The notes: a model not told the origin generated them from the letters alone. A stretch of 63,834 bases of DNA, filler included, from an uncultured Gemmatimonadota bacterium (GCA_964576115.1; 4 parts of 4 records of this genome joined end to end with filler, not necessarily neighbours in it); one strand, 5' to 3'; positions 1-18,442 are shown, counted from the whole stretch's first letter. Numbers and translations: made by a program.

Positions 1-112
1 GAATAAAGAAATCACCGATCTGAAAATCCGGACATATATTTGAGTTCATCATCATGCCTGCTTCGGTCCGGGCATAGGTAACCCGGGGAAACCAGCATCT
101 CGGAGGACAACC

Positions 113-577
113 ATGCGCTTTTTCCCAACCATCCCCATGATCACGGTAGCCGCGATTCTTGCTGCAGGTTGCAGCGAATCGACATCACCGGATGAGATAA
201 CGATTGGAGACCTCGCGGGCACGTGGGTAGCCGAGTCGTTTGAATACACCGCGGTCGGGAACTCTGCGCTGTATATCGACCTCATCGCCGATGGCGGCAG
301 CTTCACTATGATCATCTCGGCTACCGGCACCTTTTCGGGTACCACCACCTACGCCACTATCGGGACGGTAACATACACCGGCACATTCTCTGTCTCGAAC
401 GACATTCTGACGCAGGATTTCGACGAGGACGGTATCCCCACCCTGACATGGACGATCACGTCATTCGAAGATGGCTCGATGACGATTGAGGGTGCAGAGG
501 GACCATGGGACTTCTCGGATGACGAAGTGAATAACCCGGTTACTGCCTCGATCAAGGCCGTAGTGGTCCGCCAGTAA
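113..577 (+). CDS. Predicted lipoprotein, beta-rich lipocalin-like fold
   Basis: GGAGGA RBS; signal peptide with lipobox LAAGC; 'LAGTW' motif typical of lipocalin-like domains. Confidence 0.75.
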   Translation: MRFFPTIPMITVAAILAAGCSESTSPDEITIGDLAGTWVAESFEYTAVGNSALYIDLIADGGSFTMIISATGTFSGTTTYATIGTVTYTGTFSVSNDILTQDFDEDGIPTLTWTITSFEDGSMTIEGAEGPWDFSDDEVNNPVTASIKAVVVRQ

Positions 578-664
578 TCCGACTCCGGCATGTAGCAGTT
601 CAGGCGGAAGATTGACACGTACGTTGCGGGATTCACCATCCTGCCCCTCGGGTGGCGGATGGAG

Positions 665-743
665 ATGTGCGCTAGATATGTGCCAGACTCAGAATATTCT
701 TACACGCAGGAGGTCACTGGTTCGAATCCAGTATCGCCCACCA
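665..743 (+). repeat. Junction J1: arm motif + 3' half of tRNA-Val(TAC) from anticodon loop to CCA (699-743)
   Basis: GTGCGCTAGATATGTGCCAGA then CTTACACGCAGGAGGTCACTGGTTCGAATCCAGTATCGCCCACCA; T-loop TTCGAAT with stem ACTGG/CCAGT; 5' half of tRNA absent. Confidence 0.9.
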
Positions 744-754
744 GTAACAACTCA

Positions 755-2041
755 CTACTCGTGTTTGATGGCGGCAAGGTCTTTGGGATGCAACCGGTAG
801 CGTATGATGTTGCCTTCGTGCAGGCTGTAGAATTCATCTCGAATATAGTTGATGACCTGCTCGCGATCATCGTCGGGAATACCGGCCTCGACGGCCATGG
901 CCATGATGCGTTCGGGCCGGAACGCTTTCCACTCCAGCACACAACGGCGCACGGCTTTGCGAACGAATTCACGGTAGGCCAGAGTGGCCTTCTCAGGTGA
1001 ATCAACTTCGGCACGTATCACCCTGTAGTTCTCGGCCGAGGTTATGTAGGCATCGATGAACACGTCACGAAGAAGGGAAACGTTGTTCAGCTCATATATC
1101 CCGATCAGGCCATCGACATAATCACTGTCGTCCATCGTGAGAAACGACATGGGGGCGAGGTCGGCTTTCAGGAGCGGGATGTTGGATGCGATGCGTGAGG
1201 TTCGCTTGTTGATATCCTCGAAAGCCTGCAGATACGGGATCTGGACGAGAAGAAAAAAAGACTGCTCGAACGGGTCCGAGATGGCTGCTGCTTTTTGAAT
1301 CAGGATGTCGAACTCCTCCTCGATCATCAATTGATTGTCGAGAGGTCTGTAACTTGAATGGGTAATGCCTACAGGCATGCGACGCAGCCGACCTGCCATG
1401 GCGGGATCGGTAAGAAGACCGTCTGCAAGCAAGGCATGAAGATTGAATATATCCGACCGACTGATTGAAATATCAGTGATGTTATCAACAACATACTGAA
1501 TCGATTCCTTGTGATTGAGGATCATTACTGCTTCCTTGCGATCCTTGCCGGATGCCTCTTCCCCGAATCTGATCAACCGTTCAGTATCAAGGATACTGTA
1601 TGTGTTCCCTTCCAGGTGTGATGATGCCCAGGACAGATCCACCAGAAGTCTTTCAAGGATACGGCGCGCATAGGTATTCGCTGGAAGGGAAGGATGTACG
1701 GGCTGGCCGGCTGCATGCAGGCGCTGTCGATCCTCTTCACCCAGGTAGAAGCTTTTGTCCGGTATATAATGGTCCAGGAATTCCCTGTTGTAGATCGCCG
1801 GTCTTCGACGGTTATAGGGTATCTGCAGATGGGCGCGGACAACGGCGGTACCCGCAAGGCTGTAGCCGGTAGCGCGGGCTTTCCCGGTCACTTCAAGCCG
1901 GCCTTCATCAACAAGTCTCTTGAGGGCACGCCAGACTGTCGGCCCGCTTACATCCGGTGCCACATGGCGCCGGATATCCTCCCGGCCTGCTGCAGGATGG
2001 TCGGCAAGGTAGTCGAGGATTGCTTGATCAGTGAGCAGCAT
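755..2041 (-). CDS. Fic/Doc family protein with N-terminal winged HTH
   Basis: Variant Fic motif YLQAFEDINKRTSR; inhibitory-helix motif SSHLEGN; N-terminal HTH-like segment (VSGPTVWRALKRLVDEG). Confidence 0.9.
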   Translation of the reverse strand: MLLTDQAILDYLADHPAAGREDIRRHVAPDVSGPTVWRALKRLVDEGRLEVTGKARATGYSLAGTAVVRAHLQIPYNRRRPAIYNREFLDHYIPDKSFYLGEEDRQRLHAAGQPVHPSLPANTYARRILERLLVDLSWASSHLEGNTYSILDTERLIRFGEEASGKDRKEAVMILNHKESIQYVVDNITDISISRSDIFNLHALLADGLLTDPAMAGRLRRMPVGITHSSYRPLDNQLMIEEEFDILIQKAAAISDPFEQSFFLLVQIPYLQAFEDINKRTSRIASNIPLLKADLAPMSFLTMDDSDYVDGLIGIYELNNVSLLRDVFIDAYITSAENYRVIRAEVDSPEKATLAYREFVRKAVRRCVLEWKAFRPERIMAMAVEAGIPDDDREQVINYIRDEFYSLHEGNIIRYRLHPKDLAAIKHE

Positions 2042-2136
2042 GAATCGATCCCGTTATTCGATGAAACGATTATCTACATAAATAAAGCGAATTTAGCACG
2101 TTGTCAAGGTATCGTATCATTGATATTGAAACGATA
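2041..2136 (-). promoter_or_regulatory. Putative Fic promoter/operator region
   Basis: TTGACA on minus strand (2102-2107); inverted repeat TATCGTATCA-N7-TGAAACGATA (2110-2136); extra half sites TGAAACGAT (2062) and TGAATCGAT (2041). Confidence 0.5.
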
Positions 2137-2217
2137 GTATTAAAGCCAATCGCCTCCAGCTCGACGGCATCCTACAACTATCAGAAAAACGAATCCATTG
2201 GATAGCGGGCGAACCAT

Positions 2218-2239
2218 CCGTGCGCCGGATATGCGCCAG
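2218..2239 (+). repeat. Junction J2: arm motif only
   Basis: CCGTGCGCCGGATATGCGCCAG, nearly identical to the 5' end of J3/J5/J6; no tRNA fragment follows. Confidence 0.85.
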
Positions 2240-2241
2240 GT

Positions 2242-2748
2242 TCATTCCCATATCATCCTGCACCAGCTGATGGAAAGCGGGTTTGTCGCGCGGGAGATCC
2301 TGGTTCTGCCAGCTCCAATCCGGTTCGCCCGTTCATCGATGACGACCTGCGAAGGGATCCGGAATTCGCCGGGTCCTTCTCCCGGTCCACCGATGTTCCG
2401 GATGAACTGACCGTCAAGGTCATAGACCCGCAAGGTCGATGCCCTGCCATCAAGGACATAGATGTGTTCGGAGTCGGCTTCGATATCGGTGATCATCTCG
2501 AACAGGTATGGACCCTCCTCGTTCGAACCGATGGAAATCTCCTCCTCCAGCCGGGCGTTGCCTGACCAGACCTGCCCCTGGATGGTTCGGACGGTGAGCA
2601 CCTCCCCTTCCTCCGTCCGTTCGCCAGCCCATGATCCGTCAGATGTACTGCCCGATGTGCAGGAGATGATGACAAGTGTCACACACGCAATGATGGTGTC
2701 ACGCGCTTTCGCCCTCGCAGATACATGTGAAACGAAGTGCTCCTGCAT
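2242..2748 (-). pseudogene. Truncated, internally deleted 6-bladed beta-propeller (NHL-like) lipoprotein
   Basis: Signal peptide + Cys; motif YVLD..LRVYDLDGQFIRNIGGPGEGPGEF; only 168 aa versus >400 aa for the paralog at 18543-19777; a C-terminal-like segment lies in a different frame. Confidence 0.75.
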
Positions 2749-2831
2749 ATACGACGCTCCCCGACAGGGTGATAGCTGGTGAGGTTCCGTCGGGCTGTTG
2801 ATTAGACGATTATATCCTGGAGGTGTTGTGC

Positions 2832-2928
2832 CCGTGTACCGGATATGTGCCAGAATCTGTTCCGGTGATGACCGGCCAGGTCCGGTCGGGAGGTGAGGTC
2901 ACTGGTTCGAATCCGGTATCGCCCACCA
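2832..2928 (+). repeat. Junction J3: full 97-bp unit (arm motif + spacer + tRNA-Val 3' fragment)
   Basis: 87/97 identical to J6 by manual alignment; ends AGGTCACTGGTTCGAATCCGGTATCGCCCACCA. Confidence 0.92.
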
Positions 2929-3136
2929 GCAGGTTCTATTTTCACTATTACAGAGAATATTCAGGACACCGGTCATTGCACCGGCAACAGTGATGAGACG
3001 GAGCAATACGAAACAGATCCCGATGTGAAAACACAGGGGACCGCATCCCCGTTGATTGCAGTGGCAGCAGGGGGGGGCTGGCAGAGGGAATCCTCGGCTG
3101 ATAGACTGTTATCATGACACGAAAGGTTAAGATCCC

Positions 3137-5086
3137 ATGAACACGTTCCGGTTCCCGGTTCCGATTCTCTTCTTCCTCTGTCTTGGCGGTGCTGCGGTTT
3201 CGCCGGGAGGGCACTCCCTCGTTGCACAGGAGTCCGCCACAAGCGGCGCGACCGCCCCGCAGTCCCGAACCGGGCCGATCGCCCGGTTTGCATTCGACGG
3301 GACGGTCGAGAACGCTTCTGACTCATCCCTCAGAGGGGTGATCGGCGGGGAACCATCGTTTGTGGCGGGTCTTGAGGGACAGGCCTTGAGCGTCGGGGCT
3401 GATGTATCACCGGTGTATCTGACCTTCGATGCCGGCGACCTGCCGTTCGGGTGCACCCGGGATTTTTCCGTTCAGTTCTGGATGAGAACGAAGGTCGAAT
3501 CCGACAGACAGTTCGTGATCGTGTCACAGAAGGACTTTCCCGACAACAGTCTCGAGTCCCAGAAACATGGCGGCTGGGTTTTCTATGCCTCGGGAGGTAC
3601 CTGGGCCTGGAACATGGGCTCAGGTTCACGGCGGATCACCTATGAACGCGACAACGGAAAACACATGCCCCTGAATGACGGCAGGTGGCATCAGTTGACC
3701 ATGACGTACAGCAGCGAGCGGTCGGAGATCCGGCTCTTCTACGATGGTGTGAACTGGGTGTCGTATCATGTGAGCGACTCGAACGGGTTCGACTTCACCA
3801 ACAGCAGTCCGATGGTGGTGGGGTGGGCCGGCCGGAGCTCGGACGAAGCACCGGCAATCCTGCCGGCCATTCGAGCGGGAGAAGCGCAGCTGCAGGAACT
3901 GGTCGACGCCTTCAACAGCTTTGGATTGAGTGCAGTCGAACCTGATGAGTTCGTTCATCTGATCTGCGACCCGCGCCGTCTGTTCACAGAAAAGGTGGAC
4001 GAGGCAGCGGCACTCAAAGGCGCCGACGGCCCGGCGTTCCGTGAAGCCATGGAAGCGGTGGATTGGGAGCCGGTGGAAGCGGCGGAGTCAGCCCTGATGT
4101 CCAATCCCTTCACGATACATCAGGTCGTGAATTTCATGGAGACGGCACCCCTGCTGAAAATCTATGCCCTGGTCGATGGCAGAGTCACCATTCGGCGCGA
4201 CGCGGCCGAAGGTTTTGCTGAGCATGAAAGGCTGTACCCACCTGAATTCGACATGGACAACCTGACGGTGTGGGACCGTGTGCTGTCATCCGGGGAGGTT
4301 CTCTCTTCATATGCCGACTTCTTCGCGTCGGCCGGTCCTGCTCTCGAGGCGCATCTCTCGTCGATGACGGCCGCTTCATGGAACATCTGGCATGGCGGCA
4401 AACACTGGACGGTGAGTGAACACGGGTGGGATTCGAGGGTTGCTATCGCCGAGATGCTGCGGGACGAAGACGTCGACGTGATCATGATGCAGGAAACGTA
4501 TTCCTCGGGTGATTTCATCGCGGCGGAACTGGGCTATTACTTCGCGACCACCGTTGATTGGGATTACCTGAACCAGGGCGCCAACATCTCGGTGCTCAGT
4601 CGCTATCCCATCAAGGAGGTGCATGTTCAGGCGGACTCGCCCTTCATGAATGTCGGCGTGAAGATCGCCCTGAGCAGAACTCAGGATCTGTACGTGATGT
4701 CGAACTGGTACGGCATGGACCAATTTCCCGCGGTGTTCGATTTTCACGCAGCCCGGTTCAATGAATCCGATACCATTCCCACGTTGTTCGCCGGCGACTT
4801 CAATGCTGTGCCGCACACCGACGGGGGGAACAGTCCCGCTTCGCGGGTATTGCTCGAGGCCGGGTTCACCGATGCCTTCAGGAGCCTCCATCCTGATGTC
4901 GAGGAGTATCCCGGAGCGTCTCATCGAAGTGGGCGGAGAATCGATCAGCTCTACTACAGGGGCAGGGGGCTCACGAACACATCAACCAGGATCGTTTCAA
5001 CCCGGCCGGGAGGGTTCCCGTCCGACCACTTCCTGATCCTGGCGACCTTTGATCTGCATTACGTCACGACCCGGGGGGGCCGATAA
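3137..5086 (+). CDS. Secreted LamG-like jellyroll + endonuclease/exonuclease/phosphatase (EEP) domain protein
   Basis: Signal peptide; LamG features (FSVQFW, LNDGRWHQL); EEP motifs SWNIW, MQE, GDFN, RIDQLY, SDH. Confidence 0.88.
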   Translation: MNTFRFPVPILFFLCLGGAAVSPGGHSLVAQESATSGATAPQSRTGPIARFAFDGTVENASDSSLRGVIGGEPSFVAGLEGQALSVGADVSPVYLTFDAGDLPFGCTRDFSVQFWMRTKVESDRQFVIVSQKDFPDNSLESQKHGGWVFYASGGTWAWNMGSGSRRITYERDNGKHMPLNDGRWHQLTMTYSSERSEIRLFYDGVNWVSYHVSDSNGFDFTNSSPMVVGWAGRSSDEAPAILPAIRAGEAQLQELVDAFNSFGLSAVEPDEFVHLICDPRRLFTEKVDEAAALKGADGPAFREAMEAVDWEPVEAAESALMSNPFTIHQVVNFMETAPLLKIYALVDGRVTIRRDAAEGFAEHERLYPPEFDMDNLTVWDRVLSSGEVLSSYADFFASAGPALEAHLSSMTAASWNIWHGGKHWTVSEHGWDSRVAIAEMLRDEDVDVIMMQETYSSGDFIAAELGYYFATTVDWDYLNQGANISVLSRYPIKEVHVQADSPFMNVGVKIALSRTQDLYVMSNWYGMDQFPAVFDFHAARFNESDTIPTLFAGDFNAVPHTDGGNSPASRVLLEAGFTDAFRSLHPDVEEYPGASHRSGRRIDQLYYRGRGLTNTSTRIVSTRPGGFPSDHFLILATFDLHYVTTRGGR

Positions 5087-5130
5087 ACGAGTCCGGGCCG
5101 GTGAGTCATCACTGTCGGAGGACTAACACC

Positions 5131-7497
5131 ATGCTGCGAATATCTGCTGCATCGAAGTGCCTCATGCAATTTCCCTGGCGCTCTTTGTTGAGTCTGCTGG
5201 TGCTGTTGGGCCTGGCTGCCGTGCCCGTGTTGGCTCAGGAGCCCGAGAAACTGGGTGACATCGAATATTTCACGGAAACCAACAATCAATATGCATTCAT
5301 TACGGCTGACGGCGCCGTCGTCAAAGTGGCTTTCTACCGGGATGATATCTTCCGGATCTGGATGGGACCGGAGGTGGAACTGAGCGATCCGGCCGGCATG
5401 GAGGATACGCCCATCGTCGTGTACGACGGCGAGCCGATCGCAGTGAGCCACAGCGAGGAGCGTGATTACCATCTCATCGCCAGTGAAACCTGCGTGTTAC
5501 GGGTCTATAAATCGCCCTGCACCTTCGCCCTGTACCAGGCAGACAACGCCACGGTGGTGTTCGAAGAAGCCGAGCCCATCACCTACGGCGAGACAATCGT
5601 TCTCGAACCCCCGCCGGTCGATCCAGAGAACGAACGCAGGAGGCGCCGCAGAGGGCCCACCGAAAAAACGGTGACCTACCAGACGCTCAAGCGCGACAGG
5701 AGCGATTATTTCTATGGCTGTGGGATGCAGAACGGTCACTTCAATCACAACGATCGGGATGTGATCATCTCCTCCACCGGCAGCTGGAGAGAGGAGGGAC
5801 ACCCCAACGCGGTTCCGTTCTACATGTCACTGAAAGGATATGGCGCCTTCCGCAACACCTATGCCCGGGGCGTCTATTCCTTCAAGGATCCGGTACGGGT
5901 GGAGCACGAAGAAACCAGGTTCGACTGTTATTATTTCTTCGGCCCTTCCCTGAAGCAGATTCTCGACGGGTACACCCTGATCACCGGCCGACCGTTCATG
6001 ACGCCCATCTGGGCGATGGAATTCGGAGATGCCGATCGCTACGAAGACGGCACCTTCGAATGTGTCTCCTACGCCGACATGTATATCGACAACGATATTC
6101 CCGTCGGCTGGTTTCTTCCCAATGACGGCTACAGGATGAATTTCGAGCGCTTTCCGGAGGTGAGCCGGGAACTCACCGAACGCAATATCTATACGGGCAT
6201 GTGGACCGACGAAGGTCGTGATTTCGAGATGATCGTCAAGGAGTGGGGTGTTCGCCTGTTCAAACTCGATATCGCCTGGGTGGGGCGGGGTTACAAGTTC
6301 TCACTCGATGCCTGCCGCCAGGTCTTCCATCACATCGAAAACAACTCCGACGCCCGCGGTGTGCTGTGGGTGACACTGGGTTGGGCCGGTTCGCAGCGGT
6401 ACACCATCATGTGGACGGGCGACAATGCGGGCAGTCTGGACTGGATCAGGTGGCATATCCCCACCGTGACCGGCTCGGGGCTGTCCGCGCAGAACGGCGG
6501 CACCGGCGATGTCGAGGGTATTTACGGCGGGGACGCGATCACCTATGTCCGGGATCTGCAATGGAAGTGCTTCACCCCCTTCATGATGATCATCGATAAC
6601 TGGTCGGATCACGAGAAGAAGCCGTTCAGCTATGGCGATCCCTGGACCATCCACAATCGCAAGGCGCTGAAACTCAAATCCCGGCTGATGCCCTACCTGT
6701 ACACCTGTGCGTACGAGAGCCACATGACCGGCGTACCGGTGCAGCGCGCGCTGGTGTTGGAATTCCCCGACGATCCCAACACCTGGACCGAAGCCGGTGA
6801 GAACGCGAGAACGAAGTATGAATTCATGTCGGGCGAGTCCTTTCTGGTAGCTCCGGTCTTCGAGGATACCACTGCCTGGAGCTTCTATCTTCCACCCGGC
6901 AGGTGGACCGATTTTGCCAGTGGCGAGGTATACGGCGGCGGACAGACGATTACGGGATATGACGTTTCCAATTTCACGTTGCCCGTGCTGGTGAGAGAGG
7001 GCGCCATAATCCCCATGTATCCCGAGGCGTACTACGAAAACAGGGTCCAGCAGCGGCCCCGTGATCCGCTGCAGGTGGACATCTACCCCCATACCACCGA
7101 GACGACCGCCTTCACCCTGTTCGAAGATGACGGCCTGACCTATCAGTTCAGAGAGAACCGGTTCAATAAAACGCAATTCAGCTGTGATGCCGTAACGGAG
7201 CCGGGCACGATCAGTGTTGCCGTCGCGGGTTGTATGGAAGGCGATGGCTATGAGGGAATGCCACAGGAGAGAAACTACTATTTCACCGTGCATTGCGATC
7301 GGAAGCCGACGACCGTGTTCTGGACGAGTGTTCCCGGCGCCGTGAGCCAACTGCGTGAAAGAGCCGATAGTGATGAACTGCAGGGAAACGCCGAGGGCTG
7401 GTGCTATGATCCGGAGCAGGGAGGAGTGATACACATCAAGCTCAAGCCCCTCGCATATGATGCCGTGATACAGATTGAAATTCCGGTCGGGATGTGA
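5131..7497 (+). CDS. Glycoside hydrolase family 31 (CPE1046/Nag31-like, possible alpha-N-acetylgalactosaminidase)
   Basis: GGAGG RBS before ATG 5131; motifs GWFLPNDGY, KLDIAWVG (nucleophile), WTGDN (acid/base), LMPYLY; C-terminal beta-sandwich domains. Confidence 0.85.
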   Translation: MLRISAASKCLMQFPWRSLLSLLVLLGLAAVPVLAQEPEKLGDIEYFTETNNQYAFITADGAVVKVAFYRDDIFRIWMGPEVELSDPAGMEDTPIVVYDGEPIAVSHSEERDYHLIASETCVLRVYKSPCTFALYQADNATVVFEEAEPITYGETIVLEPPPVDPENERRRRRRGPTEKTVTYQTLKRDRSDYFYGCGMQNGHFNHNDRDVIISSTGSWREEGHPNAVPFYMSLKGYGAFRNTYARGVYSFKDPVRVEHEETRFDCYYFFGPSLKQILDGYTLITGRPFMTPIWAMEFGDADRYEDGTFECVSYADMYIDNDIPVGWFLPNDGYRMNFERFPEVSRELTERNIYTGMWTDEGRDFEMIVKEWGVRLFKLDIAWVGRGYKFSLDACRQVFHHIENNSDARGVLWVTLGWAGSQRYTIMWTGDNAGSLDWIRWHIPTVTGSGLSAQNGGTGDVEGIYGGDAITYVRDLQWKCFTPFMMIIDNWSDHEKKPFSYGDPWTIHNRKALKLKSRLMPYLYTCAYESHMTGVPVQRALVLEFPDDPNTWTEAGENARTKYEFMSGESFLVAPVFEDTTAWSFYLPPGRWTDFASGEVYGGGQTITGYDVSNFTLPVLVREGAIIPMYPEAYYENRVQQRPRDPLQVDIYPHTTETTAFTLFEDDGLTYQFRENRFNKTQFSCDAVTEPGTISVAVAGCMEGDGYEGMPQERNYYFTVHCDRKPTTVFWTSVPGAVSQLRERADSDELQGNAEGWCYDPEQGGVIHIKLKPLAYDAVIQIEIPVGM

Positions 7498-7529
7498 GGT
7501 CACTGGTTCGAATCCAGTATCGCCTGCCA
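7482..7529 (+). repeat. Junction J4: 5'-truncated unit (spacer end + tRNA-Val 3' fragment), overlapping the GH31 stop codon
   Basis: TCCGGTCGGGATGTGAGGTCACTGGTTCGAATCCAGTATCGCCTGCCA matches the last 48 nt of J3/J6. Confidence 0.9.
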
Positions 7530-7745
7530 GTTTCATTATCACACTCAACCACATGATTCCGGCTCCGACTCCTCCGGTCACGCGGGATTCGTCATTGCCT
7601 GTGAAACTCTGAACAGAAGGGACCGTATTACTGGATACATAAGGTTCTCATATATAAGAAGATACTGTGTGTGAACCTTTCAGGCACCAGCCAGGCCGCG
7701 TGCCGCAGTGATTCCCGAACGTTCTGAAACCTGGGGAGCAGCATC

Positions 7746-8072
7746 ATGCAGGGGGCAGCTGGAGAACATCACGAAGAAGAGATCGCGCAGCTCAGCGCCG
7801 GGATTGAACGGCAGAGACGATTGCAGATCGCCGGTCTTGTTGTCGTTGTGGTATTCGCCCTTCTCGCTTGTCTGGCGAGGATCATCAGAGGTGATCTGCT
7901 GGGCATACCGTTTCCCATCTGGGTATCACTTGCTGCGATACTGCTGGTAATGAAGCTGGTCTATCTGTTCGCTGCCTGGCGCTGTCCCCGATGCGGTGGT
8001 TTTCTGGGGTCCGGCTATCACCCCCGTTTCTGCTCCCGTTGCGGTCTGGAGTTCGCATCCGCCCGCAAATGA
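7746..8072 (+). CDS. Small two-TM membrane protein with C-terminal zinc ribbon
   Basis: GGGGAG RBS; two hydrophobic stretches; CPRC-x11-CSRC. Confidence 0.7.
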   Translation: MQGAAGEHHEEEIAQLSAGIERQRRLQIAGLVVVVVFALLACLARIIRGDLLGIPFPIWVSLAAILLVMKLVYLFAAWRCPRCGGFLGSGYHPRFCSRCGLEFASARK

Positions 8073-8200
8073 TGAGAAAGATACGGCACCCTGTTGAGGC
8101 AGTGTCGTACGCGTAGTCTCCTCTTCATAATCAATACGGAGTGTGAGTTGAATCGACAGGCAGCGTTCAGAATGGCATGTTGCCTCCGGTATCATCCGAC

Positions 8201-8359
8201 ATGCTGTTCGCCATCGGAAGCATCGGTGCCGTCGCGTATATGCTCTATCTCCCGGAGTATGGAGTCAGCATTGCGGCCATGATGAACAGTTTTGAAGGGA
8301 AATCCCTCTCTGTGAAAGGTCTTGCCCGGGTGACCGTGAATTATCTGCGCGATCGCTGA
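8201..8359 (+). pseudogene. Possible 3' remnant of a serine hydrolase (beta-lactamase-like) gene
   Basis: GSIGAVAYMLYLPEYGVSIAAMMN resembles the C-terminal strands of class C beta-lactamase-like hydrolases; upstream part missing. Confidence 0.4.
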
Positions 8360-8375
8360 TCGCTGAAATACATTT

Positions 8376-8472
8376 CCGTGTGCCGGATATGTGCCAAGAT
8401 GTATGACGGTGTTGCGTAGTCAGGACCAGTTGAGGCAGGAGGTCATTGGTTCACGTCCGGTATCGCCCAGCA
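8376..8472 (+). repeat. Junction J5: full-length but diverged 97-bp unit
   Basis: CCGTGTGCCGGATATGTGCCAA, same 64-nt offset to AGGTCA; tRNA part GCAGGAGGTCATTGGTTCACGTCCGGTATCGCCCAGCA has about 6 mismatches. Confidence 0.88.
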
Positions 8473-8637
8473 GCAACTATTTAATATTCAATAAGTTGTA
8501 AGAGTTGCCGGGATATTGTACCCCTCTACACAACCCTGATTATTGAGCGATATAGAAAGATAATAACCTTGATAAATGAGCGTATGATATTAATAATAGC
8601 CCAGTATATATGAATATTATCGTCTGCAGGGGGAGGA

Positions 8638-9957
8638 ATGACCATGAAACGGATGATTGACCAATCATTGATCGAGTGGAAGAATTCGCTCCACCGGAAA
8701 CCTCTTCTGATCAGAGGAGCGAGACAGGTTGGGAAAACCTGGTCGATCGAGACCTTCGGGCGCGAGCATTTCACCTACCCGGTCAAGATCGATTTCGAAA
8801 GAAACCGTGACTGGCACAAGGTCTTTGATGGAGATCTGGATGCCGGAAGAATCTGTACTGAACTCGAGGTGCTCACCGATCAATCGATCCTTCCCGGGGA
8901 ATCGCTCCTCTTTCTTGATGAGATTCAGAGCTGTCCGAGGGCGATCATGGCTCTTCGCTATTTCCATGAGGAATTGCCGGATCTTCATGTGATAGCGGCT
9001 GGTTCGCTGCTCGAGTTCGCGGTTGCCGACATGCCGTTTCCGGTCGGGCGTATTCAGATCCTCGACATGCATCCGATGATCTTTGCGGAATTCCTCCGGG
9101 CCACCGGTCGGGACATGTTGGCCGACATCGTGCTGGGGGAGCCGGCGGTTGTACCTGACTCCGTGCATCGTCTCCTCATGAGCGAATTGAAGAAATATTG
9201 CCTCATCGGAGGCATGCCCGAGGTTGTCGCCAGATACCTCGAAACGGAATCCATTCAGCAAGCTTCACGGGTTGTCGGTGACCTCTGTGAGACCTACAGG
9301 CTTGATTTTCCACGATATTCCAGACGGTCTGATCCCGATTGCATCGACACGGTGTTCCATGGCCTGGCGAGAAATCTCGGCCATCAGGTGAAATACTCAC
9401 GTCTGACCGACGCCTGGGCGCACACGACTGTCAAGCGGGCGGTGAATCTGCTCGATATGGCACGGATCATCAAGCGGGTTCCCTCGGCCTCACCGTCCGG
9501 GCTCCCCCTGGGAGCATCGATCTCTGATCGGAAGTTCAAAGCGATAATGGTGGACGTGGGTATCTGGCAGTATCTGAGCGGGATGAGGATCGATTCCGCT
9601 ATTGCAGAAGATGATCTGCTGGACATCCACCGTGGTGCAATGGCCGAGCAGTATGTCGGCCAGGAAATGATGGTATCACAGAGCTCGGATCTCTATTACT
9701 GGGCCAGAGAAGCCAGGGGAAGTTCGGCAGAGGTTGATTACCTGGCGGTGATACAGGATTCCATCTTCGGTGTTGAGGTCAAGAGTGGTCCCGCAGGACG
9801 ACTCCGCAGTATGCACCTGCTCCTGGAATCCTATCCGAATTGTGCCGGCGGTCTGGTTTTCTCCACGGCTCCCTATACGGAACTCCCTGAGAAGCGGCTG
9901 ACATTCATTCCACTCTATCATACCTATGCCGCGACGCGCTCTGTGCACCAGGCTTGA
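8638..9957 (+). CDS. AAA+ ATPase (AAA_14) with DUF4143 / PD-(D/E)xK-like C-terminus
   Basis: Walker A GARQVGKT, Walker B LFLDEIQ, GGMPE, C-terminal EVDY..GVEVKSG; GGGGAGG RBS. Confidence 0.92.
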   Translation: MTMKRMIDQSLIEWKNSLHRKPLLIRGARQVGKTWSIETFGREHFTYPVKIDFERNRDWHKVFDGDLDAGRICTELEVLTDQSILPGESLLFLDEIQSCPRAIMALRYFHEELPDLHVIAAGSLLEFAVADMPFPVGRIQILDMHPMIFAEFLRATGRDMLADIVLGEPAVVPDSVHRLLMSELKKYCLIGGMPEVVARYLETESIQQASRVVGDLCETYRLDFPRYSRRSDPDCIDTVFHGLARNLGHQVKYSRLTDAWAHTTVKRAVNLLDMARIIKRVPSASPSGLPLGASISDRKFKAIMVDVGIWQYLSGMRIDSAIAEDDLLDIHRGAMAEQYVGQEMMVSQSSDLYYWAREARGSSAEVDYLAVIQDSIFGVEVKSGPAGRLRSMHLLLESYPNCAGGLVFSTAPYTELPEKRLTFIPLYHTYAATRSVHQA

Positions 9958-9987
9958 CTGGGCGTTGTCCAATAAACAGACGCAATC

Positions 9988-10084
9988 CCGTGCGCCGGAT
10001 ATGTGCCAGACTATGTTTCGGTGGTTACCGGTCAGGTCCGGTCGGGAGGTAAGGTCACTGGTTCGAATCCAGTATCGCCCACCA
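9988..10084 (+). repeat. Junction J6: full 97-bp unit
   Basis: CCGTGCGCCGGATATGTGCCAGA...AGGTCACTGGTTCGAATCCAGTATCGCCCACCA (last 33 nt identical to J1). Confidence 0.92.
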
Positions 10085-10202
10085 GCAACTCTTTGTTACT
10101 CAGTGAATTACGATACCTCCACTTTTGAGGTGAATATTCTGTTGGGCATGTTGTCTAATTGATAGACATCAGCAATGCAGCAGGATTCTCCAGGAGGAAC
10201 GC

Positions 10203-11510
10203 ATGTTCACAAAGCGGGCAGCTCTTGTGTGTTCGGCGGCTCTGTTGGTTGTGTGTGCCGCATGTTCGACGGCCGTCGACATCAGCACCATGACGGACGA
10301 GGAATTCATGGCGTATGCGCAGAAAGTCCACGACAGAGCTATCACCCTCGATACGCATGTCGATATCCCCGGCGGCCGGTATGCAACACCGGAAATGGAC
10401 CCCGGCAGCGAGGACTTCAGAAACAAATGTTCGCTGCCGAAGATGGAGCAGGGTGGACTGGACGGGACCTTTCTTGCGGTCTATGTGGGGCAGCGGGGCG
10501 GGCTCGACGAAGAGGGGTACCGGAACGTCTACAATCAGGCGATGGAGAAATTCACGGCGATCCACCGGTTGACCGAAGAAATGCACCCCGACCGGTGTGA
10601 ACTTGCCGTTTCGCCGGACGACGTCGAACGCATCGTCAAGACCGGGAAACGGATCATCATGATCGGTATCGAGAACGGCTATCCCATCGGGGACGATATC
10701 GCCCGTCTGCAGGAATTCTACGACCTCGGCACACGGTATATCACCCTCTGCCACAGCTCGAACAATCAGATCTGCGATTCGTCCACAGACCGTGAACCGC
10801 TGTATGACGGGCTGAGCGAGTTCGGCCGACAGGTCGTTGCGGAAATGAACCGCCTCGGCATCATGATCGATATGTCACACGCTGCCGATGAAACGTTCTG
10901 GGACGTCATCGAGGCCTCAGAGGCGCCGATCATCCTGTCGCACTCCAACTGTGACGGCGTGTATGAGCAGGCACGGAATATCGATGACGACATGCTCAGA
11001 GCGCTGGCGGAGAACGGGGGGGTGATCCAGGCCGTCACCATGTACGTGGGGACCGACTCTCAGGAACGGCGTGATGCGATACAGGCGCTGCGGGATGAGC
11101 TCGGCATTGTCGGAAGGGGTGGAAGAGGCGGCAGACCGTTCGGAAGACAGCGGCCGGCAGCGCCGGAAATGACCGAGGAGCAGCGGGCTGAATATCAAAG
11201 GAATATGCAGATCTATAGCGAGCGGATGGCAGAGATCGACCAGCAGTACCCGCCGGTGAATGTGTCCAACTACGTCGATCACATCGATCATGCTGTACAG
11301 GTTGCCGGTATCGACCATGTGGGCATCGGCACCGATTTCGACGGCGGCGGCGGCGTGTCGGGATTCAACGACCACTCGGAATGCCTGAACGTTACCATCG
11401 AACTTCTCAGGCGGGGGTACACGGAAAAAGAAATCCAGAAGATATGGGGCGGTAATCTGCTCCGCGTCTGGAGAGAGGTCGAAAGAGTAGCGAGAGAACT
11501 GCAGAGATAG
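10203..11510 (+). CDS. Membrane dipeptidase (peptidase M19), probable lipoprotein
   Basis: AGGAGG RBS; motifs DTHVD, IENG, IDMSH, SHS, HVGIGTDFDG, GGNLLRV. Confidence 0.93.
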   Translation: MFTKRAALVCSAALLVVCAACSTAVDISTMTDEEFMAYAQKVHDRAITLDTHVDIPGGRYATPEMDPGSEDFRNKCSLPKMEQGGLDGTFLAVYVGQRGGLDEEGYRNVYNQAMEKFTAIHRLTEEMHPDRCELAVSPDDVERIVKTGKRIIMIGIENGYPIGDDIARLQEFYDLGTRYITLCHSSNNQICDSSTDREPLYDGLSEFGRQVVAEMNRLGIMIDMSHAADETFWDVIEASEAPIILSHSNCDGVYEQARNIDDDMLRALAENGGVIQAVTMYVGTDSQERRDAIQALRDELGIVGRGGRGGRPFGRQRPAAPEMTEEQRAEYQRNMQIYSERMAEIDQQYPPVNVSNYVDHIDHAVQVAGIDHVGIGTDFDGGGGVSGFNDHSECLNVTIELLRRGYTEKEIQKIWGGNLLRVWREVERVARELQR

Positions 11511-11518
11511 GGTGTGTT

Positions 11519-11540
11519 CTCCGTGCCGGATATGTGCCGG
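11519..11540 (+). repeat. Junction J7: arm motif only, distal end of the array
   Basis: CCGTGCCGGATATGTGCCGG between the convergent stop codons of the dipeptidase and M23 genes. Confidence 0.8.
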
Positions 11541-11552
11541 GCTCTATCCCCC

Positions 11553-12830
11553 TCAGTTACTGATGACGAAGATAAACTCGGAGAAGATGAAGGAGTTCCT
11601 GCCTCCGAAATACGGGGAGTCGAGAGCGCCGGCCAGGTTGAGATTGGAAAAAGTGATCGGCAGGCAGTTGGCGGACAGGTAGTCGGGTGAATCGAGCAGC
11701 TCCAGATGCAGGTGCGGCTCGGTCGATTGACCTGAATTGCCGACATAGCCGATGATGTCGCCCTGGCTCACCCGATCCCCCACCCGTACCGGAATCTCTT
11801 CGCGCAAATGTACGTACCGGGCGTATTCCCCGTTTCCATGGTCGATGAATACATAATTGGCCCCGGGCATATCCGTCGGACTCACGCCCTGCTGCCCCAG
11901 GATTTCCCGCAGGCGCTCATTGCGCTGGGGGAACGGTACTCGCGGATTGGCGGCGATCTCGTCGGGATACCGGTTCTCGATCCCGATCACGGTCCCCGGA
12001 GCCATCGCCCGGACCGGTCGGTTGTATATGTAATAGTCGGCGGCGTTTTCAGAGCCCATGATGACCATCGGACTCCGCACCCGGGACGTCGAGAAAGTAC
12101 CATCGGGGAATCGCCGGAGGTCGAGAATGTCGATGGCAAACTCCTGAGAGTTCCCGAACCGGTGGCCGGGGCCGATCGGCAGGCTCCCGGCGGTAGCCGT
12201 CCCGGCCAGGGGAAAGTGGTAGTCGTTTCGACACTCATACGCTTCGAAGGGCAGTACAACCGACCCGGTCACGGTCCGCCCGCGTTCATCACGAGCTTTG
12301 ATGATGACCTCGAACTCCTCTATGACCGCCGTACCCTGGTAGAGGAAATACATCAGGGCATCGAGTCCGAGTCGGGCATATGATGAGGCCGGCAGTTGGT
12401 GTCCCTCATAGTATTCGGGCCGGGTGATAACCGGCTCGCCGTAGATGCGGCGCAGGCGATAGGCTGCCTCGGGATCATCGGGATCGGCCAGGTATCCGTT
12501 GAGTGACTCGTTCTGTTCCGGCATGAGGCTGCTGATCTGGTCGGAACCGACCTGAACCAGGGCGACGTCGCGCCCCTGTGACCGGGCGACAAGACGCGCA
12601 CCGGTTACCGTAAGAGTGCCTCTGTCCTGGTTCCGGATCAGCAATTCGGGGGGCTTGAGGTGCAGGCAGTGGTACTCGCCCTGATCCCAGGCCAGGGGGA
12701 TGACCCGCTCATTTCGGACCAGCATCTCCACTATCAGTCGATCTGTGTCTTCCCTGGTGCCGGCAGCACCTATCATTACCAGACAGGCTGTGAGACCGAG
12801 AAATGCGATTGCCAATGATATCTTTTTCAC
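11553..12830 (-). CDS. Secreted M23 family metallopeptidase
   Basis: AAGGAG RBS before GTG 12830; signal peptide; NYVFIDHGNG, YVHL, GNSGQSTEPHLH. Confidence 0.88.
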   Translation of the reverse strand: MKKISLAIAFLGLTACLVMIGAAGTREDTDRLIVEMLVRNERVIPLAWDQGEYHCLHLKPPELLIRNQDRGTLTVTGARLVARSQGRDVALVQVGSDQISSLMPEQNESLNGYLADPDDPEAAYRLRRIYGEPVITRPEYYEGHQLPASSYARLGLDALMYFLYQGTAVIEEFEVIIKARDERGRTVTGSVVLPFEAYECRNDYHFPLAGTATAGSLPIGPGHRFGNSQEFAIDILDLRRFPDGTFSTSRVRSPMVIMGSENAADYYIYNRPVRAMAPGTVIGIENRYPDEIAANPRVPFPQRNERLREILGQQGVSPTDMPGANYVFIDHGNGEYARYVHLREEIPVRVGDRVSQGDIIGYVGNSGQSTEPHLHLELLDSPDYLSANCLPITFSNLNLAGALDSPYFGGRNSFIFSEFIFVISN

Positions 12831-12909
12831 CGGGGTACTCCTTTTCACGAAACCAACCACGAGACCGGGTGCGTCTCATAGCAGAATGGGGAAGCAGGAA
12901 AAGTCCCAC

Positions 12910-12954
12910 AATTCCCCGAAAGTGGCAGAGGTGAGAAATTCCACTACAGTGGAA
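12910..12954. promoter_or_regulatory. Putative LuxR/NarL-type operator pair
   Basis: AATTCCCCGAAAGTGG and AATTCCACTACAGTGGAA; the second is a perfect 7-2-7 palindrome (TTCCACT-AC-AGTGGAA) between divergent M23 and LuxR genes. Confidence 0.5.
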
Positions 12955-13007
12955 GCCCGGTGCCGACCTGGATTATCCTGTGCGGACCAGGGGAGTGAAG
13001 GAAAGCC

Positions 13008-13952: not shown

Positions 13953-14258
13953 AGAGCCACTCCGGTCCTGGCCGGCACAAAAAGAACACGGTGACTCTCG
14001 TGGCAATCGGGCGGTTACGTCGTTCAACCGGTTCCTTGAAAATTCAACCGTGTCCATCGAATATTCAATGTTACTATTTGGAACCCATGTTCGACTTTAC
14101 ATGTTTTTGAAGGCTTAATCAGGTTCTCACAGACATTCCCTGGCCCGCGGGCGGTATCCCGGCTTGCACCGGGTGTTCAGCCGGATTAGGCTCATCCGAT
14201 TATCGAGCCGGGTGAGGATTGAGAGCACCGATCGATCTCCCGCATCAGGGGAGGAAAC

Positions 14259-15446: not shown

Positions 15447-15521
15447 GGCCGGGTTATCAGTCTCGTCCCGTCAGACGGCGCCGGCCCGAACCTCACGATC
15501 GCCGGTGACTCAGACAGGCTC

Positions 15522-16961: not shown

Positions 16962-17006
16962 GACTTCACCCTATCCACCACCGGACCGTGGTGTCAATAT
17001 GTGGAC

Positions 17007-17963: not shown

Positions 17964-18030
17964 TGAGCCCTGCCGGCGGTTCCCTTTGCCGTTGACGGAG
18001 GCGATCTGAAAACGTTTCGTATACTGGCTC

Positions 18031-18107
<77 letters not shown>

Positions 18108-18114
18108 TTTCATC

Positions 18115-18151
18115 AACCGCGGACGGCTCGACCGTTCGCGGTTGTTCTTTT
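18115..18151 (+). terminator. Rho-independent terminator of tRNA-Asp
   Basis: AACCGCGGACGG-CTCGA-CCGTTCGCGGTT followed by GTTCTTTT. Confidence 0.75.
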
Positions 18152-18165
18152 ACACTCAGGATACG

Positions 18166-18327: not shown

Positions 18328-18442
18328 AGCTTCCTGACCCGATACAACAGGAGTGGAACGTGGATTTGTGCGGTTACATGACCCCGAAAGGGATCGAGGC
18401 CCGTTTCGCGGAGGTCGAGGTCCTGCGGGAGGCGGGGGAGAG

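Follow-up and report, generated by a model that had tools for sequence, protein, structure and literature searches.

The window analysed here, a stretch of 63,834 bases, consists of four contigs joined by runs of N, and the low-GC end of contig 1 of 4 (window 1-11.6 kb) holds an array of small gene modules separated by copies of one tRNA-derived site. The modules have a GC content of 0.52-0.58 against 0.63-0.65 in the rest of the window, the host level being reached from about 14 kb onward. As the window is made of four contigs, the earlier note was right to speak of other contigs. The seven sites that it had proposed were all located on the plus strand: four full junction units, one junction with the tRNA part only and two with the motif only, which gives the tRNA part in five sites and the motif in six. 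An eighth unit lies 60 nt to the left of the window on L028, a metagenome contig of the same organism that is 100% identical to window 1-1258 and extends it leftwards by 180 nt with the unit at L028:37-140; by this overlap, the array continues past the contig start. The features of the array are as follows.

1..743, plus strand: module c0, which begins about 60 nt left of the window (about 803 bp in total; left boundary from L028)
113-577: lipocalin-like lipoprotein gene of c0 (weak match to Pfam Lipocalin_4, E 0.0018, below the curated cut-off)
661..762, plus strand: full junction, type A (nhmmer E 1.3e-31)
755..2041, minus strand: gene of module c1, HTH and Fic/DOC protein of 428 aa (Pfam Fic 2.9e-07, HTH_24 0.0015)
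2216..2267, plus strand: motif-only junction (weak nhmmer match, E 0.025, at 2216-2242)
2242..2748, minus strand: module c2', cut-off DUF5128 beta-propeller gene (Pfam, profile positions 42-105 of 321 only)
2831..2937, plus strand: full junction, type B (nhmmer E 2.3e-12; CCA at 2928)
2929-7529, plus strand: module c3, its genes spanning 3137..7497
3137-5086, plus strand: c3 protein with Laminin_G_3 and endonuclease/exonuclease/phosphatase domains (Pfam)
5101-7497, plus strand: c3 GH31 glycosidase (Pfam), its stop codon inside the next junction
7482..7535, plus strand: partial junction, tRNA part preceded by 16 nt from the end of a type B spacer (nhmmer E 3.6e-09)
7530-8472, plus strand: module c4, two small ORFs spanning 7746..8359
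8372..8490, plus strand: full junction, diverged type B (nhmmer E 2.1e-12)
8638..9957, plus strand: AAA_14-DUF4143 ATPase of module c5 (8473-10084; Pfam; PADLOC PDC-S01, 3e-129)
9984..10095, plus strand: full junction, type B (nhmmer E 6.4e-16; CCA at 10084)
10203..11510, plus strand: membrane dipeptidase of family M19, in module c6 (10085 to about 11550; Pfam 1.4e-97)
11515..11552, plus strand: distal motif-only junction (motif search)
11553..12860, minus strand: flank, M23 peptidase gene, GC 0.596

Two of the seven modules seen in the window lie on the opposite strand. Stop codons stand close to or inside the junctions (755, 7497, 8359, 9957, 11510 and 11553), at the positions noticed before. 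Modules c0, c3, c4 and c5 have a tRNA-bearing joint on both sides, and c1, c2' and c6 are eroded on one side; for the source organism, three of the eight joints are eroded or dead. Such cargo is what defence and addiction islands typically hold: here the ATPase, PDC-S01 being a PADLOC defence candidate, and Fic, and in the sister arrays SoFic, MazF, ParE and DUF2442/DUF4160, with exported enzymes in addition. The Fic protein of c1 also matched PADLOC PDC-S04 weakly (4.2e-10) and, when compared by BLASTP with the SoFic proteins encoded in the other arrays (described below), had no match at E≤1e-3. The two ORFs of c4 (7746-8072, with two CxxC pairs, and 8177-8359) matched no family in Pfam or PADLOC, and the final codons of the DUF5128 gene of c2' extend into the junction spacer.

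Searches of the window with the parts of the site delimited the family. A 17-mer of the motif, at up to three mismatches, matched seven times in the 63,834 bases: six times in the array (671, 2224, 2838, 8382, 9994 and 11525) and once, with three mismatches, on the minus strand at 59569. By chance 0.27 matches were expected, and none of 100 shuffles reached seven. The 32-nt tRNA part, also at up to three mismatches, gave four matches (712, 2897, 7498 and 10053; expectation 0.00), and its diverged copy at 8440-8472 was caught by repeat finding and by the profile. An nhmmer profile of the unit matched 661-762, 2831-2937, 7496-7535, 8372-8490 and 9984-10095 and, weakly, 2216-2242, did not report the site at 11519-11541, and had as its sole match elsewhere in the window the T-arm of a tRNA-Asp. 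All seven sites fall within 11.5 kb, and the other ~52 kb yielded one chance-level motif match and that T-arm. The tRNA 3' fragments form direct repeats, the five copies in the window and the one in L028 all being on the plus strand.

Each unit opens with a direct-repeat motif, GYGCCRGA-TAT-GYGCCARA; a variable spacer separates this motif from the 3' half of tRNA-Val(TAC), behind which stand about 12 conserved bases. In the type A unit at 661..762 the spacer is short and AT-rich, and the tRNA 3' half runs from the anticodon loop to the CCA, which ends at 743 and is followed by the conserved CAACTCACTA. Among the copies in the window, the loop CTTACAC occurs only in 665-743, the others comprising the T-arm and acceptor end only; the TAC anticodon recurs in the arrays of other organisms. 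The type B unit at 2831..2937 has a spacer of ~45 nt with a CCGG...CCGG hairpin ahead of the T-arm and acceptor end. In its diverged relative at 8372..8490 the tRNA part begins at the 3' strand of the anticodon stem and the T-loop has decayed; at 7482..7535 the motif is missing or not recognisable beneath the GH31 3' end. Of the motif-only junctions, the one at 2216..2267 retains motif and spacer up to a degenerate anticodon loop, ATCCTGCAC, lacks the tRNA part and adjoins a truncated gene, the partner DNA being mid-gene. The distal one at 11515..11552 retains the motif and ~14 nt of spacer with no tRNA part, and the stop codon of the convergent M23 gene lies 12 nt on.

Across the window, L028 and five further loci, the motif was found at 15 distinct real sites and is as well conserved as the tRNA part, while the 28 nt on its 5' side are unrelated between sites, except where the upstream genes are homologous. 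With a spacing of 11 bp, the direct repeat presumably resembles arm-type or Xis-type binding sites. In the T-stem of 11 distinct tRNA-part copies, 55 of 55 cells pair and three of the five pairs have changed on both sides, a covariation score reached by none of 500 shuffles. With pairing kept by compensatory changes, the tRNA parts are under a constraint of tRNA type; they must therefore either derive from functional tRNA-Val genes, belonging to more than a single lineage, or have had to complete such genes. The junctions are borne out as a single homologous att-like family sharing one arm motif, and the modules as gene-sized.

The same repeats could be read as a tRNA-derived mobile element of MITE or SINE type that inserted between existing genes, the modules being nothing but the genes in between. 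The type A unit measures 77 nt from motif start to CCA, about the length of a tRNA, and the spacers contain insertions, one of them in L019 flanked by a duplicated 11-mer. We regard this as highly improbable: all copies share one orientation and lie within a single low-GC block, neither Rfam nor ARAGORN recognised a tRNA-like gene within the units, and the intervening genes are foreign by GC and differ between arrays. A true integron, with IntI and attC, would account only for the layout, in which small cassettes with toxin-antitoxin genes follow one another. Integrons have attC sites made of imperfect inverted repeats (R''-L''...L'-R') with a GTTRRRY core, an intI-attI-Pc platform and cassettes that are mostly promoterless and co-oriented. 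Inspection of the aligned junctions revealed no evident attC-type inverted repeat or GTTRRRY core, the cassettes occupy both strands and no integrase is in view; the junction anatomy of direct tRNA-derived repeats with a direct-repeat motif contradicts an integron, which is almost certainly the wrong explanation.

The unit was also sought in metagenome DNA, and the scan found 15 stretches. Three belong to the same organism (L020, L025 and L028) and have an identical module order; six from other organisms contain real units (L014, L017, L018, L019, L024 and L027) and, with L024 overlapping L014 and L017 overlapping L019, amount to about four arrays. Four of the 15 hold ordinary tRNA-Val(CAC) genes and two are chance matches. 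In the sister arrays, units separate modules encoding SoFic, PDC-S01 (AAA_14-DUF4143), DUF2442/DUF4160, MazF and ParE. The SoFic genes are 95% identical at the nucleotide level between L014 and L019 and 89-90% identical to that of L018, and the PDC-S01 modules of the window, L014 and L018 share 73.5-84% of their nucleotides, the homologues of c5 reaching 75% amino acid identity in L014 and 85.5% in L018. Upstream regions are conserved together with the cargo gene, and the modules have such regions of their own. The homology between the window and L018 extends from the AAA gene across the motif and tRNA part and ends a few bases past the CCA. In L014 the array again has a lower GC content (0.526) than its flank (0.609).

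The order of modules differs between these organisms, although not within the source population: with D for DUF2442, F for SoFic, A for the AAA ATPase and X for an unnamed piece, it is D-F-A in L014, A-D-F in L018 and F-(X)-D in L019/L017. Divergence is also unequal within one pair of arrays, L014 and L018 sharing 75% of nucleotides in the AAA module and 89% in the Fic module. Recurring junctions and modules with different neighbours and unequal divergence argue, on this comparison of sequences, for exchange at the level of the module rather than random decay.

Alternatively, the ~100-bp units may now serve only as conserved stretches of homology for RecA-type recombination that swaps, deletes and reorders modules after DNA uptake, a site-specific recombinase being no longer involved. 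Several details of the sister arrays fit. Mosaicism occurs below the level of the module; the Fic blocks that L014 and L019 share at 95% identity stop 56-106 nt short of the motif; two DUF2442 copies surround inserted genes in L014; and where L014 and L018 have a joint with both flanks in common, the T-stem differs, its types following neither flanking module clearly. This T-stem difference suggests that gene conversion or homologous recombination has also been at work. As the whole explanation such exchange is distinctly unlikely: unbroken identity between units is short, mostly the ~33-45-nt tRNA part, and neither the conservation of the arm motif nor the first arrival of tRNA halves and P' ends at every module is explained by it. 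The positions of the breaks are likewise unexplained. The anticodon loop is the usual crossover site. The truncated joint of L017 breaks after the CCTT of this 7-nt loop, the window joint at 2218 after the degenerate loop and the one at 11519 approximately at the TTAC. The three motif-only joints are broken in or beside the anticodon loop, as expected of a site-specific recombinase.

No gene for such an enzyme was found. Among 78 stop-to-stop frames of at least 70 aa in window 1-13000, none matched a recombinase or transposase family of Pfam, the 16 families matched all being cargo, in accordance with the earlier note's observation that no module encodes an integrase. No integrase was named among the 22 PHROG families matched by 83 frames of at least 200 aa in the rest of the window. 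None was seen in the six sister stretches, nor was a fragment of at least 70 aa in 13 kb. In the window ARAGORN recognised the tRNA-Asp and nothing else, hence no intact tRNA-Val(TAC), and the array loci gave no tRNA at all. The suggestion to look left of position 1 led to the further unit on L028, but to neither an intact tRNA-Val(TAC) gene nor a recombinase. One contig present in both X3 and X4, two of the runs, has the 5' half of a tRNA-Val joined to a 3' half resembling that at 665, and cannot be tied to the array. No parent ICE or IME was found, and scans of viral contigs gave 0 matches. With neither an intact tRNA-Val(TAC) nor an integrase in the window or the six sister stretches, anchor and enzyme have to be assumed.

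Alternatively, the modules could be remnants of full-size elements (islands, ICEs/IMEs or prophages) that arrived at tRNA-Val with their own integrases and lost these by deletion, leaving a classical row of decayed CIMEs in which no small unit moves and no recombinase acts now. Besides the eroded joints, the truncated cargo gene and the GH31 gene running into its joint, the identical order within the population agrees with it, as does the c2'/c3 joint, which was unchanged in two other runs; no ongoing movement was seen in the same-population contigs and these runs. Neither an excised circle nor an empty site was seen in the runs, which comprised contigs only. The available part of PMC5704250 documents decay to CIMEs followed by accretion as a route, and that of 10.1101/2020.12.28.424599 describes tycheposon islands with degenerated elements and scattered partial tRNAs. 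We nevertheless consider passive decay unlikely. Fully closed modules of the same 0.7-1.6 kb, recurring across arrays with differing neighbours and order, would not be expected from independent decay; integrase fragments of 70 aa or more are absent from the 13 kb and the sister loci; and the conservation of the arm motif across its 15 sites and the unequal divergence of modules within one array pair also speak against it.

The explanation that we favour, with a probability of roughly 0.55, is that mini-elements without an integrase, mobilised in trans, accreted at tRNA-Val by site-specific recombination. The array would be the distal part of a row anchored at a tRNA-Val(TAC) gene beyond the contig start. 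As in the standard tRNA-att model, a site-specific recombinase of the tyrosine type, encoded elsewhere and acting in trans, would have inserted small circles serially into the tRNA gene, every circle bringing one or two cargo genes and a single ~105-bp att site. At each insertion the tRNA would be restored with the 3' half of the incoming unit and the older units pushed outward. It follows from this restoration and outward push that each internal joint would be a hybrid attP-like site, presumably made up of the P arm of the left unit (motif and spacer), the tRNA 3' half and, from the right unit, the short P' end. Crossing-over would most likely take place in the anticodon loop; however, type B units lack this loop and could not recombine there unless the true crossover is further 3'. 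Recombination of a joint with non-att DNA and ordinary deletions may later have killed three of the eight joints. Contrary to the prediction for the oldest joint, the distal ends of two arrays (window 11519 and L014 past the AAA gene) have no tRNA part, for which later deletion is an ad hoc explanation.

More tentatively, the array might be a dedicated platform for gene capture and not a graveyard of islands: a single tRNA-Val-specific recombinase would serve a pool of minimal cassettes shared among sediment bacteria, each cassette being one cargo gene with a ~105-bp att site and its two-repeat arm motif. The cassettes would be stacked, reordered and lost at the tRNA, so that the platform would be the functional equivalent of an integron, relying on double-stranded recombination at tRNA-att sites. 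If small integrase-less cassettes are routinely docked at tRNA genes in trans, a good share of the flexible gene pool for defence and toxin-antitoxin systems in uncultured bacteria travels along a route discarded by current island finders, Islander being one example. The conserved arm motif and the minimal ~105-bp site offer a concrete substrate for testing, and the unit profile can list arrays in metagenomes. If the sites are only decayed scars, the locus is an ordinary, well-preserved case of tandem accretion in a poorly studied lineage.

The earlier proposal of trans-driven cassette stacking analogous to an integron is supported in part, by the shared site family, the recombinase-less modules and their reassortment, and the breakpoints at the loop; the analogy itself is loose. 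Chromosomal integrons are similarly rows of small cassettes, rich in toxin-antitoxin and unknown genes, with presumably one recombinase. In the present array, by contrast, no attC hairpins were evident on inspection, no intI platform is in view (the array head lying beyond the contig), cassettes on both strands have their own upstream regions, several joints are eroded and the presumed docking site is a tRNA gene. The dif modules of Acinetobacter plasmids are bounded by 28-bp XerC/XerD pdif sites in alternating orientation and reside on plasmids. As far as the accessible descriptions go, they are alike in principle, being gene-sized, recombinase-less and short-site-bounded, shuffled by an enzyme encoded elsewhere and often laden with toxin-antitoxin cargo; the present sites differ in being ~105 bp long, tRNA-derived, directly repeated and chromosomal.

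Islander islands, in the portion of the catalogue's description available (PMC4383910), have a co-oriented 3' tDNA fragment at each end, include tandems, and belong most commonly to the anticodon-centred attP class (2083 of 3919). According to the same portion, candidates below 2 kb or without an integrase are rejected and tandems of three or more number only 4 among the 3919 islands, which places the present array outside what Islander records. Tycheposons, in the text available of 10.1101/2020.12.28.424599, integrate at tRNA genes with a partial tRNA copy as the sole separator, newer insertions pushing older ones inward, and leave partial tRNAs and remnants around 'plug-in' cassette cargo. 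The partial tRNAs, tandem neighbours and remnants of tRNA integration are all found here. The same text defines tycheposons by their own tyrosine or serine recombinase and by replication genes, which often accompany it; recombinases of the hallmark types (deep-branching tyrosine or large serine) were not found in the 13 kb of the array. Compared with the tycheposons of Prochlorococcus, the present units are much smaller, and phylum, target tRNA and arm motif are different.

CIME arrays likewise place integrase-less att-flanked elements head to tail at one att site in a tRNA gene. Pavlovic 2004 and Bellanger 2011 are reportedly the primary papers on their tandem accretion. In the part of PMC5704250 at hand, CIMEs are att-flanked and lack integration and transfer genes, the integrase of an incoming element can act on them, and those of streptococci accrete tandemly with ICEs and IMEs at the 3' ends of tRNA genes; the modules of the window, att-flanked and without recombinase genes, answer to this description. 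That source presents CIMEs as decay products of large conjugative elements, whereas the present units measure 0.7-4.6 kb, hold one or two genes, stand at least eight in a row, share a direct-repeat arm motif and recur as the same mini-units in other hosts, with no parent ICE or IME in view. Altogether, CIME-type tandem accretion and tycheposon islands are the closest fit, and the likeness to integrons holds in the broadest sense only.

The earlier note's observation of tRNA-Val-derived repeats delimiting small gene modules was confirmed, and all seven of its sites (665, 2218, 2832, 7482, 8376, 9988 and 11519) were found on the plus strand within a low-GC block. The array lies wholly within the first (1–18442) of the four contigs of the window, which are separated by paired runs of N at 18443–18542, 36927–37026 and 54966–55065. 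The GC content is 0.52–0.58 over the first 11.6 kb versus 0.63–0.65 in the remainder of contig 1 and the three other contigs. Repeat finding returned three copies of approximately 100 nt (2831, 8375 and 9987), five of the tRNA part and five or six of the motif. With up to three mismatches, the 17-nt motif matched seven times in the window (0.27 expected; this count was reached by none of 100 shuffles), six times in the array and once at 59569 on the opposite strand with three mismatches. The 32-nt tRNA part, at the same tolerance, matched four times in the window against 0.00 expected. A unit profile built from seven units of the type called A below matched 661–762, 2831–2937, 7496–7535, 8372–8490, 9984–10095 and, weakly, 2216–2242; it did not report the site at 11519, and elsewhere in the window it matched only the T-arm of a tRNA-Asp. 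No tRNA was detected in the array by ARAGORN or Rfam. A metagenome contig of the same organism (L028) is 100% identical to positions 1–1258 and reaches 180 nt further left, where it carries one more full unit. The array thus continues beyond the contig start, and the lipoprotein gene (113–577) likewise counts as a bounded module.

Cargo modules of the array in the window, with boundaries taken at the CCA ends
c0, ~0.8 kb: lipocalin-like lipoprotein, gene 113–577 (weak Pfam match)
c1, 1.5 kb, minus strand: HTH plus Fic
c2', 0.66 kb, minus strand: DUF5128 propeller gene, first third only
c3, 4.6 kb: LamG plus EEP protein; GH31
c4, 0.94 kb: two small ORFs with no family match
c5, 1.6 kb: AAA_14–DUF4143 ATPase
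c6, 1.5 kb: M19 dipeptidase

The claim that the modules lack an integrase was borne out, as none of 78 stop-to-stop frames of at least 70 aa in window 1–13000 matched a recombinase or transposase family of Pfam; the sixteen Pfam families that these frames did match were exclusively cargo. Among the 22 PHROG families (most of them unnamed) matched at 1e-6 by 83 frames of at least 200 aa in the rest of the window, none was named integrase. The AAA protein matched the PADLOC defence candidate PDC-S01 (3e-129), and the HTH–Fic protein weakly matched PDC-S04. Promoter-like sites occurred at chance level (7 versus 7.2 expected), and the single good one (8569–8597, sigma-70-like, 10/12) lies upstream of the AAA gene. 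The region upstream of this gene (window 8533–8637, L014:4507–4616) is conserved between arrays and contains repeated TTGATnAnTGAGCG-like words, which, together with the promoter match, suggests from sequence that the AAA module has its own regulated promoter. Most of c4 is taken up by a 108-aa ORF (7746–8072) that contains a hydrophobic stretch, has two CxxC pairs close to its end and matched no Pfam or PADLOC family. Past 11.55 kb the GC content climbs to the host level, and an M23 peptidase, a LuxR-type regulator, DUF819, a CsgG-like lipoprotein, a 2-thiouracil desulfurase-like gene and tRNA-Asp follow. Just upstream of the tRNA-Asp (18031–18107), a long plus-strand frame with 2-thiouracil desulfurase and DUF1722 domains (16431–17963) is overlapped by a 319-aa minus-strand frame with no family match (16971–17930), so gene calls there need care.

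The joints between modules are units of four parts. The first is an 8-mer direct repeat at 11-bp spacing (GYGCCRGA-TAT-GYGCCARA; relaxed form CCRGATATGYGCC), followed by a semi-conserved nnTGTTyy; this two-repeat motif is best read as a predicted site at which an excisionase-like factor or the arm-binding domain of an integrase would bind. The second part is the spacer. In type A (665, the copy in L028 and the majority of sister arrays) it is AT-rich and approximately 10 bases long; in type B (2832, 8376 and 9988) it spans approximately 28–45 bases and includes a CCGG...CCGG hairpin and a GGTCCGGTCGGG box; in one sister copy, in L019, it has 125 bases. The third is the 3' part of tRNA-Val(TAC), which in type A extends from the anticodon loop to CCA and in type B starts only at the variable loop or the 3' anticodon stem. 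About 12 conserved bases past CCA (consensus nnnnCAACTCAnTAT) form the fourth. Across the window, L028 and five further loci, 15 distinct real sites have kept the motif, and the 28 nt preceding it are unrelated among sites except where the upstream gene is homologous. Within the long L019 spacer (joint at L019:2291–2489, minus strand), approximately 60 nt are bracketed by two copies of GACCGGTTGGG. This joint, which L014:289–363 resembles, retains a complete anticodon stem-loop and D-arm-like bases; possibly it represents type B in an older or fuller state.

The tRNA parts show a tRNA-like constraint. In 11 distinct copies all 55 of 55 T-stem cells were paired, and three of the five pairs were changed on both sides (stems ACTGG/CCAGT, GCAGG/CCTGC and AGAGG/CCTCT), a covariation score reached by none of 500 shuffles. 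Selection on functional tRNA-Val genes, in more lineages than one, has therefore shaped these fragments. The standard model, in which the incoming element supplies the sequence restoring the split tRNA (as outlined in part of the Islander paper, PMC4383910), predicts just this for such a restoring sequence.

Other readings of the unit fared less well. As an RNA gene, it matched nothing in Rfam at E 0.1 or better, and the folding of a type B unit exceeded that of shuffles by a modest margin (z −2.2). The motif was also considered as a degenerate tRNA 5' half or as a tRNA promoter. It shows no pairing with the acceptor 3' strand. Four intact tRNA-Val(CAC) genes of other organisms (L015:1633–1709, L026:966–1042, L016:460–533 and L021:968–1040) have GATATGTGCC directly or 2–3 nt upstream, in some cases after CCGTG or CTGTG, as seen in the array motif. 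For both readings, the simplest and most likely cause is the search pattern itself; that the array motif is linked to tRNA-Val upstream regions is conceivable.

Incomplete joints were of two kinds. The motif stands without the tRNA part in four of them: window 2218, window 11519, L017:630–590 and the site past the AAA gene in L014. Similarity ends after CCTT of the anticodon loop in L017 and after a degenerate loop, ATCCTGCAC, at 2218, where the adjoining sequence comes from mid-gene in DUF5128, on the opposite strand. At 11519 the alignment is weak; similarity is lost near TTAC, and the convergent M23 gene has its stop codon 12 nt further on. That three joints broke within or next to a single 7-nt stretch of the 105-nt unit is the outcome expected of recombination at the crossover between a joint and non-att DNA. 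The attP classes were reportedly defined by Williams in 2002. Anticodon-centred attP sites form the largest class in Islander, with 2083 of 3919 (from the consulted part of PMC4383910). In the L014 joint, the tRNA part is deleted, leaving a degenerate motif and a stretch resembling P', the bases after CCA. Conversely, the tRNA part stands without the motif at L014:316–384 and at window 7482, where the GH31 reading frame terminates within the joint.

A scan of metagenome contigs with one motif-plus-T-arm pattern yielded 15 stretches. Three (L020, L025 and L028) belong to the window's organism and have the same module order at 99.8–100% identity, four are ordinary tRNA-Val(CAC) genes with the 10-mer upstream by coincidence, and two are chance matches. 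The remaining six (L014, L017, L018, L019, L024 and L027) carry real units in other organisms; L024 overlaps L014 and L017 overlaps L019, leaving approximately four sister arrays. Their cargo comprises MazF, ParE, DUF2442 (four times), DUF4160, an alpha/beta hydrolase, a SoFic-type Fic (PADLOC SoFic, 2.4e-110) and the AAA_14–DUF4143 ATPase. Neither an integrase nor an intact tRNA was present in any of the six. L024 is part of a 40-kb metagenome contig, expected to reach the head of a sister array. In L014 the GC content is 0.526 in the array and 0.609 in the flanking peptidase gene; a low-GC array within a high-GC host thus recurs.

The units keep their anatomy across these arrays, and the modules are reassorted. 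The order is DUF2442–Fic–AAA in L014, AAA–DUF2442/DUF4160–Fic in L018 and Fic–(X)–DUF2442 in L019/L017, and the AAA module of the window is flanked by two modules found in no other array. SoFic modules are 95% identical in nucleotides between L014 and L019 and 89–90% to L018, and DUF2442 modules are 79–87% identical. AAA modules share 83.6% (window/L018), 73.5% (window/L014) and 75% (L014/L018). With 75% identity for AAA versus 89% for Fic between L014 and L018, descent of whole arrays from one ancestor is hard to reconcile. The window and L018 stay homologous across the AAA gene end, motif and tRNA part, and lose similarity a few bases past CCA. The Fic blocks of L014 and L019 stop 56–106 nt short of the motif, an additional ORF separates the joint from the Fic block in L019, and one joint with both flanks common to L014 and L018 has a different T-stem; homologous recombination or gene conversion therefore also acted on the arrays. 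Two DUF2442 genes of L014 (441–716 and 2587–2880, 85% aa identity) surround a hydrolase and a ParE-type pair in one 2.5-kb module with no joint inside, which looks like two modules fused after joint loss or an insertion between duplicated genes.

The stretch or part of it was present in 10 of 11 sequencing runs. No circle joints or joints skipping a whole module were seen in the four runs examined, all as Logan contigs, which break at units and cannot reveal rare forms. The c2'/c3 joint was unchanged in contigs of runs X6 and X10, and the small shares of the stretch in these two runs are low-depth pieces of a related strain. A joint from 2507 to 2766 (X10, depth 4, side 32) lies within a module and is not interpretable as a trace of movement. 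In X3 and X4, a contig joins a tRNA-Val 5' half to a 3' half resembling 665; an intact tRNA-Val(TAC) of this kind thus exists in those samples, although it is not tied to the window's array. Contig depth in X3 was 18–19 for c0 and c1 and 27–30 for c3 and c6, with a similar trend in X4. The idea that tRNA-proximal modules are present in fewer cells was set aside, since depth tracks GC and contig depth is unfit for ranking parts. At 8818–8907 and 12672–12718, about half of the X3/X4 contig depth has other letters; these samples thus also contain a second variant of the AAA module and of part of the M23 gene.

Searches of other collections were negative. A scan of genome contigs gave 13 stretches, all chance and mostly ordinary tRNAs; the pattern demanded GGATATG and misses the CCAGATATG form of the sister arrays, so it says little about absence. 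Viral contigs gave no match to any of four patterns (motif plus T-arm, motif plus anticodon loop, tRNA end plus P', motif alone). Two phylum-wide pattern searches had arbitrary centres, neither phylum being established as the window's own: 79 genomes gave four matches in three genomes, all in coding DNA and none profile-supported, and 401 genomes of another phylum gave just the centre's own chance match.

Altogether, serial site-specific insertion at tRNA-Val(TAC) is the best-supported reading. A unit would enter as a circle with an attP of approximately 105 bp, its tRNA half would restore the gene, and the displaced half would remain between the new and the older unit. Read from left to right, an internal joint would then be the left unit's P arm (motif and spacer), a tRNA half and the right unit's P' end. 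Since no unit encodes a recombinase, the enzyme would have to be supplied in trans; we infer this enzyme, the circle, the direction of growth and the exact crossover. Serial insertion does not account for three features: the anticodon loop is missing from type B units, the tRNA part predicted to persist is missing from the oldest joints in two arrays, and T-stem types do not track the flanking modules. The earlier note had proposed cassette stacking by one recombinase in trans, analogous to an integron. The tRNA-derived anatomy of the joints and the reassortment support this in part; the array is not an integron, and the likeness to one is loose. An attC-type inverted repeat was not evident on inspection of the aligned joints, the visible DNA, which lacks the head of the array, showed no intI, attI or Pc, and two of the seven window modules lie on the opposite strand.

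A limited literature search of main texts found no paper naming or describing such single-gene, integrase-less tRNA-fragment arrays with a shared arm motif at tRNA-Val. A functional parallel is offered by the dif modules of Acinetobacter plasmids, which, in the accounts consulted in part, carry no recombinase and are moved by an enzyme encoded elsewhere. CIMEs (cis-mobilizable elements), as described in the excerpted text of PMC5704250, retain attL and attR after loss of integration and transfer genes and accrete with incoming elements at tRNA 3' ends. Tycheposon neighbours are, in the accessible portion of the preprint (10.1101/2020.12.28.424599), separated by a partial tRNA alone, newer elements displacing older ones inward, with partial tRNAs and degenerated elements lying scattered. 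Islander, in the corresponding sections of PMC4383910, recorded tandem arrays only if every member had its own integrase, rejected candidates below 2 kb and listed four tandems of at least three among 3919 islands. The ssrA islands of Dehalococcoides (PMC3146451, in part) provide a further frame of comparison. Unusual here are the small uniform unit size, at least eight joints in a row, the common arm motif and the recurrence in other hosts.
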